Source of the DNA: a virus
Strand: one strand, 5' to 3'
UHGV virus genome: UHGV-1698711
DNA length: 10,724 nt
Of this stretch, positions 1,789-6,763 are shown piece after piece. Position 1 is the first letter of the stretch. Each line of letters begins with the position of its first letter. A program made the translations under genes and the position numbers. Under the pieces are notes generated by a model. The model worked only from the letters and a program-made list of their open reading frames with translations, made no database searches and had not been told where the DNA came from.

Positions 1789-2622
1789 ATGACAGTGAAA
1801 ACAAAGCGTTTTCGCATCGGGGTGGAAGGTGCCACCACCGACGGACGCGAAATCCAGCGTGAATGGCTGGAACAGATGGCAGCCAGCTACAACCCGGCGG
1901 TGTATACCGCGCTGATTAACCTTGAGCACATCAAGTCTTATCTGCCGGACAGCACCTTTAACCGTTACGGCAAGGTGACGGCGCTGTTTGCTGAAGAAAT
2001 CACGGAGGGTCCGCTGGCGGGCAAGATGGCACTGTATGCCGACGTTGAGCCAACGGAATCACTGGTGGAACTGGTGAAAAAAGGCCAGAAATTATTCACC
2101 TCTATGGAAGTCAGCCCGAAGTTTGCTGATACGGGCAAAGCCTACCTGGTCGGCCTGGCTGCCACTGATGACCCTGCCAGTCTGGGCACTGAAATGCTGA
2201 CATTCAGCGCCAGTGCAGCCCATAACCCGCTGGCAAACCGCAAGCAGAATCCCGCCAATCTTTTTACCGCTGCAGAGGAAACTGTGATCGAACTGGAAGA
2301 AATCCAGGATGACAAACCGTCCCTGTTTGCCCGTGTCACGGCGCTGTTCACCAAAAAAGAGCAGTCCGATGACGCCCGGTTCTCTGATGTGCATAAGGCC
2401 GTGGAACTGGTCGCCACTGAGCAGCAGAACCTGAGTGCGCGCACCGAAAAATCCCTGTCTGAGCAGGAAGAACGCCTGTCTGAGCTGGAGACTGCCCTGC
2501 AGGCACAGCAGACCGCCTTTAACGAACTGGTGGACAAGCTGAGCCAAGAAGACAGCCGCCAGGACTACCGCCAGCGTGCAACAGGCGGTAACGCCCCCGC
2601 TGACATTCTGACCAATTGCTGA
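1789..2622 (+). CDS. O: Capsid scaffolding protein, P2 gpO-like
   Basis: 277 aa ORF with GGAG 8 nt upstream. MTVKTKRFRIGVEGATTDGRE... and the C-terminal ...RATGGNAPADILTNC resemble P2 gpO (FRIGVEGDT..., ...ATGGGGDALMTNC). Central coiled-coil-like, acidic region. Position is immediately upstream of the capsid gene. Confidence 0.92.
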   Translation: MTVKTKRFRIGVEGATTDGREIQREWLEQMAASYNPAVYTALINLEHIKSYLPDSTFNRYGKVTALFAEEITEGPLAGKMALYADVEPTESLVELVKKGQKLFTSMEVSPKFADTGKAYLVGLAATDDPASLGTEMLTFSASAAHNPLANRKQNPANLFTAAEETVIELEEIQDDKPSLFARVTALFTKKEQSDDARFSDVHKAVELVATEQQNLSARTEKSLSEQEERLSELETALQAQQTAFNELVDKLSQEDSRQDYRQRATGGNAPADILTNC

Positions 2623-2638
2623 TGGAGCACAAAACCTG

Positions 2639-3697
2639 ATGAAGAAGAATACCCGCTTTGCTTTTAACGCTTACCTGCAGCAACTGGCGCGTCTGAACGG
2701 TGTGGCAGTTGAAGAACTGTCCAGCAAGTTCACCGTAGAGCCGTCCGTGCAGCAGACATTGGAAGACCAGATCCAGCAGTCCGCCGCTTTCCTGACGCTG
2801 ATTAACGTCACGCCAGTGACTGAGCAGTCTGGCCAGTTGCTGGGGTTGGGAGTTGGCAGCACCATTGCCGGAACCACTGATACCACCGCGAAAGAGCGTG
2901 AGCCTGTCGATCCGACGCTGATGGTCGATGTGGAATACAAATGCGAGCAGACCAACTTTGACACGATACTGACCTACGCGAAGCTGGACCTGTGGGCGAA
3001 GTTTCAGGATTTCCAGGTGCGTATCCGTAACGCCATCGTGAAACGTCAGGCACTGGACCGCATCATGATCGGCTTTAACGGCGTGAAGCGTGCGAAAACC
3101 TCCAACCGTAGCGAAAACCCGCTGCTGCAGGATGTGAATAAAGGCTGGCTGCAGAAAATCCGTGAGGATGCACCGGATCACGTCATGGGCAGCACCACCA
3201 CGGGCGGTGAAACCACACCGGGCGCAGTGAAAGTCGGGAAAGGTGGCGAATATGCCAACCTGGACGCCGTGGTGATGGATGCCGTCAATGAGCTTATCGA
3301 CGTGGTCTACCAGGACGATGACGATCTGGTGGTGATTTGCGGTCGTGAACTGCTGTCTGACAAGTATTTCCCGCTGGTCAACAAAGAGCAGGAAAACAGT
3401 GAAAAACTGGCTGCCGATATGATCATCAGTCAGAAACGCATGGGTGGCCTGCAGGCCGTGCGTGCGCCGTTCTTCCCGCCGAATGCGCTGCTGATCACCC
3501 GTCTGGATAACCTGTCCATTTACTGGCAGGAGGACACCCGCCGCCGTTCGGTTATCGACAACCCGAAACGTGACCGGATTGAAAACTTTGAATCCGTTAA
3601 CGAAGCCTATGTGGTTGAGGACTACCGCTGCGCAGCACTGGTGGAAAACATTCAGATTGGCGACTTCAGCGCCGCCGCCGCAGAAGCCGGAGCATAA
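2639..3697 (+). CDS. N: Major capsid protein, P2 gpN-like
   Basis: 352 aa ORF, 16 nt after O, with GGAG upstream. Size and position match P2 gpN (about 357 aa). Confidence 0.93.
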   Translation: MKKNTRFAFNAYLQQLARLNGVAVEELSSKFTVEPSVQQTLEDQIQQSAAFLTLINVTPVTEQSGQLLGLGVGSTIAGTTDTTAKEREPVDPTLMVDVEYKCEQTNFDTILTYAKLDLWAKFQDFQVRIRNAIVKRQALDRIMIGFNGVKRAKTSNRSENPLLQDVNKGWLQKIREDAPDHVMGSTTTGGETTPGAVKVGKGGEYANLDAVVMDAVNELIDVVYQDDDDLVVICGRELLSDKYFPLVNKEQENSEKLAADMIISQKRMGGLQAVRAPFFPPNALLITRLDNLSIYWQEDTRRRSVIDNPKRDRIENFESVNEAYVVEDYRCAALVENIQIGDFSAAAAEAGA

Positions 3698-3700
3698 ACC

Positions 3701-4351
3701 ATGAGCCTGAGTCCCGCACGGCAGCATCGCCTGCGCGTTCAGGCTGAACAGGCCGCCCGCGAGGGCGGCAGTGTTCGCCACGCATCGGGCTATGACCTGA
3801 TGCTGCTGCAACTGGCGGAAGACCGCCGCCGTCTCAAGGGCGTTCAGTCCACGGTCAAAAAAGCGGAAATCAAAGTGGAGCTGCTGCCGAAGTACGCCGC
3901 CTGGGCAGAGGGTGTCCTGGCTGCCGGAGGCGCTCAACAGGATGACGTGCTGATGTACGTGATGCTGTGGCGCATTGATGCCGGAGATTATGCCGGGGCG
4001 CTGGAGATCGGGCGTCATGCCCTGCGTCATGGCTGGGTGATGCCGCTGGGTAACCGCAACGTGCAGACCGTGCTGGCAGAGGAAATGGCAGACGCCGCGC
4101 AGAGCGCAATGCTTGCCGCCACCGGCTTTGATGCCGATCTGTTGCTGCAGACGCTGGAGCTGACAGACGGTCAGGATATGCCGGACCAGTCACGGGCGCG
4201 TCTGCATAAAGCGATTGGCGCGGTCCTGAGTGAAAGCAATCCGGCGTCCGCCCTTAACCATCTCAACCATGCGTTACAGCTCGATCCTCGCTGTGGCGTG
4301 AAAAAAGACAAACAGCAGCTGGAGCGCAGACTGCGCAATGACAGCCGCTGA
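3701..4351 (+). CDS. M: Terminase small (endonuclease) subunit, P2 gpM-like
   Basis: 216 aa ORF starting 3 nt after the N stop, GGAG upstream. Motifs such as LLPKYAAWAEGVL, GAQQDDVLMYVMLWRIDAGDYAGALEIGRHAL and LELTDGQDMPDQSRARLHK resemble P2 gpM. Confidence 0.88.
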   Translation: MSLSPARQHRLRVQAEQAAREGGSVRHASGYDLMLLQLAEDRRRLKGVQSTVKKAEIKVELLPKYAAWAEGVLAAGGAQQDDVLMYVMLWRIDAGDYAGALEIGRHALRHGWVMPLGNRNVQTVLAEEMADAAQSAMLAATGFDADLLLQTLELTDGQDMPDQSRARLHKAIGAVLSESNPASALNHLNHALQLDPRCGVKKDKQQLERRLRNDSR

Positions 4352-5117: not shown

Positions 5118-5333
5118 ATGACGCTTGAGCGAATCAGCGCCTTTATCACGTACTGCATCGCCGTTGTGCTGGCCTGGCTGGGCGATTTGTCCATCAAGGA
5201 TGCCTCAACGCTGGGCGGCCTGATGATTGGTGTGCTGATGCTGGCTATCAACTGGTACTACAAACACAAAGCCTACCAGCTTCTGCGCGACGGGCAGATC
5301 TCGCGGGAGGACTATGAATCCATCAATCGTTAA
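5118..5333 (+). CDS. Small class II-type holin (two predicted transmembrane helices, charged C-terminus); candidate pinholin
   Basis: 71 aa. Hydrophobic stretches ISAFITYCIAVVLAWLG and LGGLMIGVLMLAINWYY are followed by the charged tail KHKAYQLLRDGQISREDYESINR. It sits in the holin position (after X, before the endolysin) and overlaps the endolysin start by 20 nt. It is shorter than P2 gpY and of a different topology class. Confidence 0.7.
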   Translation: MTLERISAFITYCIAVVLAWLGDLSIKDASTLGGLMIGVLMLAINWYYKHKAYQLLRDGQISREDYESINR

Positions 5334-5826
5334 ACGCTGCCTTGTCGGGACCGTGCTGGCTATTGCTGCCACGCTGCCGGGTTTTCAGCAGCTTCACACC
5401 TCCGTGGAGGGGCTGAAACTGATTGCTGATTACGAAGGCTGTCGTCTGCAGCCGTATCAGTGCAGTGCGGGTGTCTGGACCGACGGCATTGGTAATACAT
5501 CGGGCGTCATCCCGGGCAAAACCATTACGGAACGACAGGCAGCGGAAGGGCTGATCTCCAACGTGCTACGTGTGGAGCGGGCGCTGGAAAGGTGTGTGAA
5601 GCAACAGCCGCCGCAGAAGGTATATGACGCTACGGTGTCGTTTGCCTTCAACGTGGGAACGGGCAGTGCCTGCAGTTCCACACTGGTGAAATTACTCAAT
5701 CAGCGGCGCTGGGAGGATGCATGCCGACAGTTGCCGCGCTGGGTTTATGTAAAAGGTGTGTTTAATCAGGGGCTGGATAACCGCCGTGCGCGGGAGATGG
5801 CCTGGTGTTTACAGGGAGCAAACTGA
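5314..5826 (+). CDS. SAR endolysin, T4-lysozyme fold (glycoside hydrolase family 24), phage P1 Lyz-like
   Basis: 170 aa. The N-terminus MNPSIVKRCLVGTVLAIAATLPG is a weakly hydrophobic Gly/Ala/Thr-rich signal-anchor-release-type segment. The catalytic region ADYEGCRLQPYQCSAGVWTDGIGNT matches my recollection of P1 Lyz (GNAEGCRRDPYMCPAGVWTDGIGNT). GGGAGG ribosome-binding site lies upstream. Confidence 0.9.
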   Translation: MNPSIVKRCLVGTVLAIAATLPGFQQLHTSVEGLKLIADYEGCRLQPYQCSAGVWTDGIGNTSGVIPGKTITERQAAEGLISNVLRVERALERCVKQQPPQKVYDATVSFAFNVGTGSACSSTLVKLLNQRRWEDACRQLPRWVYVKGVFNQGLDNRRAREMAWCLQGAN

Positions 5827-5827
5827 A

Positions 5828-6205
5828 ATGAAAAAGAAATTAATCAGCGGACTGTTTCTGATGTTATGGATGGCGCTGTTAATCGCAGCAATGGTGTATC
5901 CGCAGGGGATTTTTCCGGTACTGGCAGCGTCCGGCGTTTGGGTAGCCTGTTTGCTGACATGGGTGGTAATTCCGGTAGCACTGGCTGCGTTAATTAAGAA
6001 TGGCCCGCTCTGGCAGGAGTTAAGGGCATCTTTGCTGAAGACAATTACCCGAAAAGAAAACGTATTTATCAGTTGGGTGATGCGATTGCTGATTGTCGTC
6101 AGTCTCGCCTGGACGGGGTGGGCTATTACCCTGGTCTTTTATCTGCTGACCGTTATTGCCTTCTGGATCACCCGTAATCAGATGGCGCAACAGGTATCAG
6201 CATGA
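5828..6205 (+). CDS. Multi-pass inner-membrane protein in the P2 lysA position; putative lysis-timing / antiholin-like factor, function unproven
   Basis: 125 aa from ATG 5828 (GGAG at 5815-5818; the track's 5756 start lies inside the endolysin gene). Three to four hydrophobic helices (LISGLFLMLWMALLIAAMV, IFPVLAASGVWVACLLTWVVIPVALAALI, VFISWVMRLLIVVSLAWTGW, AITLVFYLLTVIAFWI). Its stop overlaps the lysB start (ATGA at 6202-6205). Confidence 0.55.
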   Translation: MKKKLISGLFLMLWMALLIAAMVYPQGIFPVLAASGVWVACLLTWVVIPVALAALIKNGPLWQELRASLLKTITRKENVFISWVMRLLIVVSLAWTGWAITLVFYLLTVIAFWITRNQMAQQVSA

Positions 6206-6630
6206 ACCGGTTGCTGCTGGTTGTGCTGGCGTTATTACTGGCGGCGCTGGGCTGGCAGACGTGGCGGCTGGCTGATGCCAGCCAGACCATCAGCACGCAG
6301 GCAGACGAGCTGCAGAGCAAAAGCCAGGCACTGGCAAAGAGCAACAGCCAGCTTATCAGCCTGTCCATTCTGACTGAAACCAATAACCGGGAGCAGGCGC
6401 GGCTCTATGCCGAAGCAGAACAGACCAGCGCGCTGCTGAGACAACGACAACACCGGATCGAGGAACTGAAACGTGAGAACGAGGATTTACGCCGCTGGGC
6501 TGATACTCCTTTGCCTGCTGACATTATCCGGCTGCGGGAACGTCCGGCACTCACCGGAGGTACAGCTTACCGTCAGTGGTTGTCCGCGAGTGACGCCGTG
6601 TCGGCTGGATCAGGCAACGCCGCGCACTAA
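6202..6630 (+). CDS. lysB: i-spanin (Rz-like; P2 LysB equivalent)
   Basis: 142 aa. N-terminal transmembrane segment LLLVVLALLLAALGW is followed by a long charged, coiled-coil-like periplasmic region (QADELQSKSQALAKSNSQL...RIEELKRENEDLRRW). It lies after the endolysin and membrane protein, as in P2. Confidence 0.75.
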   Translation: MNRLLLVVLALLLAALGWQTWRLADASQTISTQADELQSKSQALAKSNSQLISLSILTETNNREQARLYAEAEQTSALLRQRQHRIEELKRENEDLRRWADTPLPADIIRLRERPALTGGTAYRQWLSASDAVSAGSGNAAH

Positions 6631-6763
6631 CGGTGATCTGAACGCGTTGCTGGATGAAACGGAGGCCGCCTGGGCGGTCTGTGCAGACAAAGTGGACATG
6701 ATTATTGCGTGTCAGGAGCGAAACAGTGAACAAACCACAATCCCTGCGCCACGCCCTCAATAA
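6473..6763 (+). CDS. lysC: o-spanin (Rz1-like lipoprotein; P2 LysC equivalent), overlapped in the +1 frame with lysB and extending into R
   Basis: GTG start at 6473. Signal peptide with lipobox (V/M)RTRIYAAGLILLCLLTLSG|C, then a short Pro/Cys-containing mature region. It overlaps the last 158 nt of lysB in another frame and the first 38 nt of R. 96 codons, the size I recall for P2 LysC. Confidence 0.68.
   Translation: MRTRIYAAGLILLCLLTLSGCGNVRHSPEVQLTVSGCPRVTPCRLDQATPRTNGDLNALLDETEAAWAVCADKVDMIIACQERNSEQTTIPAPRPQ

Follow-up and report, generated by a model that had tools for sequence, protein, structure and literature searches.

The late operon of a P2-like prophage carries an endolysin gene whose cysteines recall those of phage P1 Lyz. 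This locus raises the question of whether the gene product is a signal-anchor-release (SAR) endolysin controlled by a disulfide switch, and whether such a lysis module is exceptional in its surroundings. The window, which is the whole stretch of DNA analysed, comprises 10,724 nucleotides of the virus genome UHGV-1698711. Our analysis suggests that 5314-5826 most likely codes for a SAR endolysin of class I, the P1 Lyz type, in a P2-like prophage (Peduoviridae), and a disulfide-switch mechanism is predicted for this enzyme.

Organization of the lysis cassette

The endolysin gene resides within a complete lysis cassette, in which it is accompanied by a holin, a LysA-like protein, LysB and LysC:

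5118-5333, + strand: holin of 71 aa, class II with two transmembrane (TM) segments, HP1 family; PF16080 at E 4.3e-9 (above the cut-off) and phrog_20 at E 1.9e-26
5314-5826, + strand: endolysin gene, translated as 170 aa plus stop codon (TGA); likely class I (P1 Lyz-type) SAR endolysin, GH24/T4-lysozyme family
5828-6205, + strand: LysA-like protein of 125 aa with four hydrophobic helices; phrog_162 at E 1.6e-43, NF038378, four TM segments
6202-6630, + strand: LysB, Rz-like inner-membrane spanin; TIGR03495 at E 2.7e-52, phrog_89, 35% identity to P2 LysB
6473-6763, + strand: LysC, Rz1-like outer-membrane lipoprotein spanin; PF23793 at E 6e-16, NF038368 at E 2.9e-36, 42% identity to P2 LysC

The lysC gene overlaps both lysB and gpR. 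Identity to P2 is 40-66% for the flanking genes, in agreement with an earlier note on this DNA that had placed the endolysin in a P2-type late operon. A PF28015:LysA match is precomputed on endolysin-LysA fusion alleles. By analogy with P2 LysA, the LysA-like protein may act as an antiholin or lysis-timing factor.

The holin is presumed to be the trigger that depolarises the membrane. The PF04971 profile (phage 21 S) matches it at E 7e-5, below the cut-off, and pairwise BLAST detected no significant similarity to either phage 21 S or HP1 Hol. In a TM scan, TMD1 was strongly hydrophobic (-8.0) and TMD2 weakly so (-0.2), the reverse of S21. Pinholins of the phage 21 S68 type are two-TM class II proteins that possess a weakly hydrophobic, releasable TMD1 and form small heptameric holes. 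Since only profile searches place the present protein, with pairwise comparisons to S21 and HP1 Hol being null, we do not call it a pinholin.

Start codon of the endolysin gene

Two sequence elements bear on where translation of the endolysin begins:

5305-5310, + strand: Shine-Dalgarno-like GGGAGG, identified by direct reading, 3 nt before ATG 5314
5353-5355, + strand: internal GTG (V14), at which RefSeq NC_047818.1 (Klebsiella phage 4LV2017) starts the protein

Because of its short spacing, the GGGAGG by itself provides weak support for ATG 5314. The ATG lies within the holin gene, 20 nt from its 3' end, an overlap that points to translational coupling. Annotated starts within the SAR segment, namely the V14 equivalent in 4LV2017 and a start 11 codons downstream in the Fels-2 record, count against the assignment to class I. 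Initiation at V14 would cost the protein C9 together with half of its SAR domain. If these records were right, translation from GTG 5353 would yield a cytoplasmic canonical endolysin of 157 aa, which could reach the wall only through large holin holes. This is very unlikely, as no ribosome-binding site comparable to the GGGAGG before ATG 5314, a codon that overlaps the end of the holin gene, is found at GTG 5353, and homologs down to approximately 55% identity show protein-level conservation of residues 1-13 (M1, V6, R8 and C9 among them). Furthermore, the NCBI clusters with thousands of members contain proteins of 169-171 aa, and a V14 start would leave 11 hydrophobic residues of the helix, a half-helix without an obvious role. 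GTG 5353 is therefore probably not a real start.

Catalytic domain and cysteine arrangement

Two traits define class I among SAR endolysins: a triad that depends on cysteine and a cysteine within the SAR segment (bioRxiv 10.64898/2026.09.09.750462). The catalytic domain of the class is of the GH24/T4-lysozyme type, and so is that of the 5314-5826 protein: the Phage_lysozyme/GH24 profile search proposed in the earlier note returned PF00959 at E 9.4e-40, with residues 39-161 covering profile positions 2-125 of 125, and the protein also matches phrog_7 (endolysin) at E 9e-67. Its best relatives among PDB chains in an HMMER search are both P1 Lyz, 1xjt (E 4.6e-26) and 1xju (E 6.1e-25). A recent transfer from P1 was rejected as the origin of the gene, as the two proteins share only 37% identity (E 5e-33) in a pairwise comparison and all relatives at 60% identity or above occur in P2-like phages of approximately 30 kb.

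The translation of 5314-5826 bears out exactly the codons that had been assigned to C9, E41, C43, C50 and T56. The catalytic residues and cysteines downstream of the SAR segment are as follows:

5434-5436, + strand: E41 (GAA), catalytic glutamate; equivalent to P1 E42, T4 E11 and R21 E35; invariant in 20 homologs
5440-5442, + strand: C43 (TGT); equivalent to P1 C44; kept in 19 of 20 homologs, Gly in P0088
5461-5463, + strand: C50 (TGC), catalytic-triad cysteine; equivalent to T4 D20, R21 D44 and P1 C51; invariant in 20 homologs
5479-5481, + strand: T56 (ACC), triad threonine; equivalent to T4 T26, P1 T57 and R21 T50; invariant in 20 homologs
5593-5595, + strand: C94; invariant in close homologs; P1 C91 lies nearby in a different column
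5671-5673, + strand: C120; invariant in close homologs; P1 C118 lies nearby in a different column
5722-5724, + strand: C137; aligned with P1 C150 and R21 C132; invariant in 20 homologs
5806-5808, + strand: C165; aligned with P1 C178 and R21 C160; invariant in 20 homologs

In the HMMER search against PDB chains and in two MAFFT alignments, E41, C43, C50 and T56 fall on E42, C44, C51 and T57 of P1 Lyz. The correspondence of the triad residues extends to phage 21 R and T4 E, the further alignment partners proposed in the earlier note; the T4 residue under C43 is L13. The family triad has the form E-8X-C/D-5X-T, and the catalytic cysteine of the P1 enzyme is blocked by a disulfide until activation (PMC3556154). 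The endolysin retains this spacing, with E41, C50 and T56 forming a Glu-8X-Cys-5X-Thr triad that has cysteine in place of the canonical aspartate, as in class I. Likewise, the second cysteine that class I enzymes carry two residues past the catalytic glutamate is represented by C43, which is predicted to bond with C50.

The protein contains seven cysteines (9, 43, 50, 94, 120, 137 and 165), the same number as P1 Lyz. C94 and C120 probably form a structural disulfide, and C137 and C165 are probably a second disulfide pair. Since all seven are invariant or nearly so among 20 homologs at 79-96% identity, the cysteine pattern is inherited and not a product of chance. The close homolog P0088, which has glycine at position 43 and retains C9 and C50, counts against the assignment to class I. 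An AlphaFold2 model based on the endolysin and 19 close homologs (79-96% identity) reached a mean pLDDT of 55.9, with residues 1-73 below 50, and was too poor to judge cysteine proximity.

The putative N-terminal SAR segment

Three features define the N-terminal region:

5314-5337, + strand: N-region of the putative SAR domain, M1-R8, with the basic K7-R8 at its end; expected on the cytoplasmic side; M1, V6 and R8 invariant in 20 homologs
5338-5385, + strand: hydrophobic core of the putative SAR domain, C9-F24, CLVGTVLAIAATLPGF; weakly hydrophobic, with Gly, Ala and Thr accounting for 7 of 16 residues
5338-5340, + strand: C9 (TGC), SAR-domain cysteine; candidate functional counterpart of P1 Lyz C13; invariant in 20 homologs

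Class I enzymes have a weakly hydrophobic segment rich in small residues after basic residues, and this arrangement is found in K7-R8 followed by C9-F24. On the Wimley-White octanol scale, the best 17-residue stretch of the endolysin sums to +0.4, compared with -1.1 for P1 Lyz and +0.3 for R21, while the helices of the LysA-like protein, LysB and holin TMD1 in the window range from -8 to -12.5. On direct reading, the hydrophobic core is not followed by an Ala-X-Ala-type site, and C9 is not preceded by a lipobox. The earlier note had placed a SAR segment at the N-terminus, and the region is indeed SAR-like, being weakly hydrophobic and having neither an obvious signal-peptidase site nor a lipobox. 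A lipoprotein signal was considered and rejected: C9 is preceded by V-K-R. The SAR core is short, at 16 residues with P22 included, which counts against the assignment to class I.

The segment also contains a cysteine, C9, as in class I. MxxSIVKRC-like N-termini are retained in homologs at 53-63% identity. Among the more diverged relatives, below approximately 60% identity and having E-C-C together with an N-terminal helix, 19 distinct N-termini were compared. In 16 of these, a single cysteine precedes the column of T29 by 18-20 residues; the corresponding distance in P1 is 17. The three exceptions without that cysteine are probably truncated gene calls, since their N-termini are the shortest. 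The conservation of a cysteine in this segment argues that the segment remains in the mature protein, and sequence heuristics suggest that it is uncleaved.

The basic n-region, the hydrophobic h-region and the subsequent P22-G23 do resemble a cleavable Sec signal peptide, whose removal would leave a soluble periplasmic lysozyme restrained in some other way. This arrangement is highly improbable. The sole candidate cleavage sites are A16-I17-A18, inside the core, and L21-P22-G23, with proline at -2; a position-fixed conserved cysteine makes little sense in a discarded segment; and the hydrophobicity is like that of P1 and R21, whose SAR domains are proven. Moreover, a freely soluble periplasmic lysozyme from late expression would lyse the cell early.

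The earlier note had equated the whole layout with that of P1 Lyz. This holds for E41, C43, C50 and T56, but C9 lies off the column of P1 C13, which falls on L15. Within the N-terminal hydrophobic segment, both cysteines are nevertheless on the cytoplasm-proximal side. C9 follows K7-R8 directly and, relative to P1 C13, is displaced away from the catalytic domain by about one helical turn (three residues), which counts against the assignment to class I.

Comparison with P1 Lyz and other SAR endolysins

P1 Lyz (1XJT, active; 1XJU, inactive) is the prototype of class I. It and the endolysin share the GH24 fold, a SAR segment with one cysteine, a catalytic glutamate followed by Gly-Cys, a cysteine at E+9 in place of the T4 aspartate and a threonine at +15. 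The motif EGCRxxPYxCxAGVWTDGIGNT is nearly identical in both, and four of the seven cysteines in each protein occupy identical columns (C43/C44, C50/C51, C137/C150 and C165/C178). In contrast, the third cysteine pair is shifted (C94/C120 versus C91/C118 in P1), and the endolysin lacks an insertion of approximately 12 residues, RTYYSKARGMRVE, that is common to P1 and HP1. The partner holins differ as well. The endolysin is adjacent to an HP1-family two-TM protein, whereas P1 has LydA/LydB in an unlinked operon, together with LydC and the pinholin LydD (PMC9025707).

The earlier note had described the activation as "disulfide-caged", a term that belongs to the class of Era103 Lyz103 and had to be withdrawn here. 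Both Lyz103 and the endolysin are GH24 SAR enzymes with a cysteine in the SAR segment and another at E+2. Lyz103, however, has a further cysteine at E-1 (DCEGC) and keeps the catalytic aspartate (Y-K-D), whereas the endolysin reads Y40-E41-G42-C43 and has C50 at the aspartate position; the alignment thus finds no C-E-G-C with a canonical aspartate in it. Tyrosine at E-1 and cysteine in place of aspartate mean that "caging" does not describe the enzyme, whose arrangement is that of P1, where the disulfide engages the catalytic cysteine itself (PMC3556154).

The class II enzymes phage 21 R and DLP12 RrrD (3HDE, 3HDF, 4ZPU) share with the endolysin the GH24 fold, a marginally hydrophobic SAR N-terminus and the C-terminal cysteine pair (C132/C160). 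The endolysin could accordingly be a SAR enzyme whose activation is purely topological or conformational, as in phage 21 R, with C43 and C50 being a subfamily trait (catalytic cysteine plus neighbour) and the SAR cysteine unneeded for control. Of 148 family representatives, about 20 combine E-C-C-T with the lack of any N-terminal helix and resemble soluble enzymes; the C43/C50 pair exists outside SAR regulation and therefore is not diagnostic alone. The existence of a close homolog with G43 points the same way, as does the region where P1 and HP1 carry the 12-residue insertion, which in the endolysin resembles R21 and Lyz103. Nevertheless, we regard such a mode of control as unlikely. The SAR cysteine is invariant in close homologs and keeps a fixed distance in 16 of 19 diverged N-termini despite the drifted helix sequence. 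In addition, phage 21 R, with its purely conformational regulation, has an E-D-T triad, valine at E+2 and a cysteine-free SAR segment, in contrast to C50 and C9 of the endolysin.

Proposed activation mechanism

In P1 Lyz, C44 is joined by a disulfide to the catalytic cysteine in the tethered form and to the SAR cysteine in the active form. The residue-level mechanism involving C13, C44 and C51 was reportedly described by Xu et al. in 2005; a literature search on endolysin papers that mention Cys13, Cys44 and Cys51 returned nothing relevant.

For the class I endolysin proposed here, translation would start at ATG 5314, coupled to the upstream two-TM holin as the sequence layout suggests. The lysozyme domain would be exported by Sec, and the sequence features predict that K7-R8 and C9-F24 remain uncleaved in the inner membrane. 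C9 would then be located at the cytoplasmic edge, beyond the reach of periplasmic DsbA. In this tethered form, the enzyme would be inactive with C50 in a disulfide with C43, as the correspondence to C51-C44 of P1 Lyz suggests. Following the P1 model, holin triggering and depolarisation, or slow spontaneous exit, would bring the SAR segment out of the bilayer. The C9 thiol may subsequently attack the C43-C50 bond, by which C9-C43 would form and C50 would be freed, and the freed enzyme would refold and then cut peptidoglycan. The LysB/LysC spanins would then disrupt the outer membrane, with the LysA-like protein modulating the timing, if these proteins act as their family assignments indicate. 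Thiol-disulfide isomerisation by the SAR cysteine as the activating step is proposed here from residue correspondence only.

A bolder and improbable reading holds that the Fels-2/4LV2017 lineage runs a variant of the P1 disulfide switch. Given the edge-placed SAR thiol, the missing P1/HP1 insertion and the shifted third disulfide, the geometry of isomerisation or the cysteine serving as partner could differ from those of P1; the G43 homolog, for instance, hints that C9 might pair directly with C50. Separately, the same reading holds that recurrent one-base deletions fusing the endolysin to the four-helix LysA might give a selected, permanently anchored enzyme and not mere prophage decay. The 296-aa endolysin-LysA fusions were rejected as the normal form of the gene: the intact 169-171-aa clusters comprise thousands of proteins, and almost every fusion cluster has a single member.

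Distribution among P2-like phages

Orthologs at 90-97.6% identity are found in Fels-2 (STM2715.S), Klebsiella 4LV2017/KP12, Salmonella RE2010/SEN8/SopEPhi and other P2-like phages. Their position in the operon is the same, in the order gpX, holin, endolysin, LysA-like, LysB/LysC and gpR. They are separated from the present protein by a few substitutions (e.g., T13, S118, E134 and a C-terminal QGAN), and some records annotate a truncated N-terminus. The Fels-2 record already states similarity to P1 Lyz. The KP12 endolysin (record OM835953.1) is 97.6% identical to the present protein. KP12.peg.319, which appears to be this endolysin, was modelled on 1XJT (TM-align 0.83) with the SAR domain stated as conserved, and the protein, once purified, caused lysis in spot tests, which demonstrate muralytic activity only (PMC9902359).

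A more distant parallel is found in Haemophilus phage HP1 (Peduoviridae), whose Hol is the namesake of PF16080, the family matched by the holin in the window. HP1 Lys has the same triad, with C11 in an N-terminal helix, E47-G-C49, C56 and T62. It differs from the endolysin in sharing only 34% identity, in having the P1-type insertion and in the location of the lysis genes, which lie elsewhere in the late region of HP1.

In P2, the same late-operon position, between X and lysA/lysB/lysC, is occupied by the holin gpY and the endolysin gpK. P2 K is a soluble enzyme and is not known to carry an N-terminal helix. BLASTP showed no significant similarity between the present endolysin and P2 K (a 24-residue match, E 0.014-0.25), which gives no ground for a gpK-type assignment, and none between the holin in the window and P2 Y (28% over 54 residues). 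The lysis-module mosaicism claimed in the earlier note is therefore real, in that the holin and endolysin are not homologs of P2 Y and K, but it is old and family-wide and not special to this locus. Endolysins of this type are the norm in Fels-2, RE2010, SEN8, ENT90 and the P2-like phages of Yersinia and Klebsiella, and they also occur in HP1 and many P2-like phages of 30 kb.

Implications

The reading as a P1-type SAR endolysin appears correct but is an ordinary one, given that descriptions of near-identical proteins exist. Its value lies mainly in annotation, where we recommend the label SAR endolysin and a start at ATG 5314, as several public records start inside the SAR segment and thereby lose the regulatory cysteine. 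For antibacterial use, as with KP12, the full-length protein would comprise a membrane anchor and a redox switch, so that its activity would depend on the cysteines present and on the redox state. The locus opens no new question, and it provides one more example of the split of P2-like phages into K-type and Lyz-type lysis-cassette groups.

Family and active-site residues of the endolysin

Endolysin gene
5314-5826, + strand: endolysin ORF of 170 residues ending in TGA, from translation

The protein is a GH24/T4-type lysozyme, and the profile search suggested by the earlier note bears this out: PF00959 is matched over its entire profile (E 9.4e-40), and phrog_7 'endolysin' is hit at E 9e-67. 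In a HMMER search against PDB chains, the active (1xjt, E 4.6e-26) and inactive (1xju) forms of P1 Lyz are the top two of all solved structures, phage 21 R and RrrD (3hde, 3hdf, 4zpu) rank below them, and T4 lysozyme lies far below. The pairwise identity to P1 Lyz is 37% (E 5e-33). The P1 Lyz sequence used matches 1xjt chain A exactly, and the R21 sequence is the RrrD/R21 chain. Residue correspondences were taken from HMMER and two independent MAFFT alignments, all of which were concordant. E41, C43, C50 and T56 fall on P1 E42, C44, C51 and T57, the first three as the earlier note had proposed, and its residue coordinates all proved exact at the codon level.

Residues of the cysteine triad and active site, from the codon check
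5338-5340, + strand: C9 (TGC)
5434-5436, + strand: E41 (GAA), equivalent to P1 E42, T4 E11 and phage 21 R E35
5440-5442, + strand: C43 (TGT), equivalent to P1 C44, T4 Leu and phage 21 R Val
5461-5463, + strand: C50 (TGC), equivalent to P1 C51, T4 D20 and phage 21 R D44
5479-5481, + strand: T56 (ACC), equivalent to P1 T57, T4 T26 and phage 21 R T50

The endolysin contains seven cysteines in total, the other four being at 94, 120, 137 and 165. In the alignment, C137 shares a column with P1 C150 and R21 C132, and C165 with P1 C178 and R21 C160, while C94 and C120 lie near P1 C91 and C118 but out of register. All seven are invariant across 20 full-length homologs (79-96% identity), with the sole exception of P0088, a 170-aa protein from Dryocola sp., which alone among the close homologs has Gly in place of C43 (column of codon 5440-5442) and keeps the signal-anchor-release (SAR) and catalytic cysteines. 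P0088 may be a natural test of the need for the blocking disulfide, or else a defective allele.

Alignment of Era103 Lyz103 (from NC_009014) with P1, HP1, Fels-2, R21 and the present protein separates three types. P1, HP1, Fels-2 and the present protein share E-G-C ... Y-x-C, with a catalytic Cys, whereas Lyz103 has C-E-G-C plus the canonical Asp, and R21 has E-G-V plus Asp and no SAR Cys. Kuty et al. are said to have described disulfide caging, in 2010, as the mechanism of Lyz103. The P1-type activation put forward in the earlier note is right in substance, but its label 'disulfide-caged' is wrong here, because caging belongs to Lyz103. In P1 the catalytic Cys itself is covalently occupied by the disulfide (PMC3556154). 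A recent preprint divides the SAR endolysin classes in the same way (bioRxiv 10.64898/2026.09.09.750462).

The C43/C50 pair is not by itself diagnostic of the P1-type circuit, since about 20 family representatives show E-C-C-T without any N-terminal helix; the circuit is marked by the third, SAR-borne cysteine. These diverged GH24 lysozymes (among P0163-P0266) carry E-G-C ... C ... T without an N-terminal hydrophobic segment, and many have C-terminal extensions. A catalytic Cys with a partner at E+2 is therefore common outside SAR endolysins, in line with a proposal published for phiCbK gp104, in which SAR proteins resembling P1 Lyz may be the ancestors of soluble enzymes (PMC3556154).

The N-terminus as a probable SAR segment

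The N-terminus reads MNPSIVKR-CLVGTVLAIAATLPGF-QQLHTS, in which the basic K7-R8 precede a 16-residue hydrophobic stretch with 7 of 16 residues being Gly, Ala or Thr. The Wimley-White octanol sum of its best 17-residue stretch is +0.4, as marginal as the sums for P1 Lyz (-1.1) and R21 (+0.3), whose SAR domains are proven; true membrane helices in the same window (holin TMD1 and those of LysB and the LysA-like protein) give -8 to -12.5. Reading of the sequence revealed no Ala-X-Ala-type site downstream of the hydrophobic core and no lipobox ahead of C9. Among family representatives with E-C-C and an N-terminal helix at less than about 60% identity, 19 distinct N-termini were compared. Exactly one Cys occurs in 16 of them, always 18-20 residues upstream of the T29 column (17 in P1 Lyz); the three exceptions are the shortest, and their gene calls are probably truncated. 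A Cys would not be expected to persist in a signal peptide that is cleaved off, and its conservation at a fixed place makes a cleavable signal peptide highly improbable. This conservation is the strongest argument, albeit an indirect one, from which we infer that the segment stays uncleaved.

ATG 5314 is taken as the start codon. It is preceded by GGGAGG, with a 20-nt overlap with the holin stop, and is favoured because residues 1-13 are conserved at the protein level to about 55% identity; lengths of 169-171 aa prevail in the large NCBI clusters, which comprise thousands of members. RefSeq places the start in Klebsiella phage 4LV2017 at the codon equivalent to V14 (GTG, window 5353) and in the Fels-2 ortholog 11 codons in, yielding forms of about 157-158 aa that begin inside the SAR segment (L001 3540; L006 2534). 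Against the conserved residues 1-13, the GGGAGG and the cluster lengths, a short cytoplasmic form has very little to recommend it.

Proposed activation

A P1 Lyz-type, Sec-exported, cysteine-switched SAR endolysin is the best-supported reading, and a likely one. After Sec export, the SAR segment would be kept in the membrane with C9 at the cytoplasmic face, and C43 would block C50 in the tethered form. Depolarisation by the holin would release the segment, allowing C9 to attack the disulfide and yield C9-C43 and a free C50, and spanins would complete lysis. Sequence analysis shows the family, the matching residues, the SAR-like composition, the conserved triad and the cassette context, and from these the topology, the lack of cleavage, the disulfides themselves and the trigger are inferred. 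Control by conformation alone, in place of this switch, is unlikely.

Fusions with LysA

In about 33 of the best 120 homolog clusters, a one-base deletion joins the SAR endolysin in frame with LysA downstream of it, giving proteins of 276-296 aa (endolysin 3' end 5790-5826, open LysA frame 5756-6205; loci L003, L004 3001-3891). At least four distinct junctions occur (...RRARRWPGVY..., ...REMACVY..., ...REMPGVY... and ...AWCLQEQTEM...), and C165 is lost in most fusion alleles. Some fusions are in complete NCBI genomes, and one recurs in public assemblies, in 48 blocks. Since intact clusters have thousands of members and almost every fusion cluster has a single one, the fusions are most simply read as prophage decay plus ascertainment; it is conceivable that an anchored enzyme is selected for. 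Further disrupted alleles include P0109 and P0052, the latter with a fusion to gpD.

Operon context and origin

Genes flanking the endolysin
5118-5333, + strand: holin of the HP1 family, 71 aa, two TM helices (PF16080 above cut-off, phage 21 S family below)
5828-6205, + strand: LysA-like protein, 125 aa, four helices, 3' of the endolysin (phrog_162, NF038378, PF28015)

The genes of the window form a late operon of the P2 type. In BLASTP against P2, gpO, N, M, L, X, R, S, V, W, J and I show 39-66% identity to their counterparts, LysB 35% and LysC 42%, whereas no significant pairwise similarity links the holin, endolysin and LysA-like protein to Y, K and LysA. Relative to P2 itself, the lysis-module mosaicism claimed earlier is thus present, but it reflects no special event here. 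The entire window is about 97% identical to dozens of P2-like phages of Klebsiella and E. coli, and holin/endolysin/antiholin swaps in P2-like phages have been described (PMC3091744).

Of the two holin helices, TMD1 (residues 6-22) has strong hydrophobicity, while that of TMD2 (28-44, GGLMIG motif) is only marginal. In the phage 21 pinholin, TMD1 is the weak, releasable helix; the order is thus reversed here. The holin sequence revealed no dual-start motif. The LysA-like protein and P2 lysA are labelled 'endolysin' in RefSeq and phrog_162 despite having no enzyme domain, an error propagated across databases. A 503-aa ORF (2519-4030, minus strand) antisense to gpN and gpM, the capsid and terminase genes, is probably a codon-composition by-product of the sense strand, not a gene.

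Endolysins of at least 60% identity all occur in ~30-kb P2-like phages (Fels-2, RE2010, SEN8, SopEPhi, ENT90, EtG and Yersinia/Klebsiella phages); some are already annotated as 'SAR-endolysin', and the Fels-2 record mentions similarity to P1 Lyz. The triad also occurs in HP1, another of the Peduoviridae (C11, E47-G-C49, C56, T62). Recent import from P1 was ruled out by the 37% identity to P1 Lyz and the lack of an insertion common to P1 and HP1; sequence comparison points to an old lineage.

KP12.peg.319, the endolysin of Klebsiella phage KP12, was modelled on 1XJT (TM-align 0.83), its Lyz signal anchor/SAR domain was stated to be conserved, a pinholin partner was sought, and the purified enzyme was lytic in spot tests; the cysteines were not discussed (PMC9902359). 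The present protein shares 97.6% identity with the endolysin entered in the KP12 GenBank record, and the P2-type cassette with overlapped spanins in that paper suggests that this entry is peg.319. A near-identical protein has already been published as a SAR endolysin. The protein belongs to a textbook endolysin class within a very common prophage family, and its SAR nature is masked in 4LV2017 and Fels-2 by RefSeq starts that delete C9.
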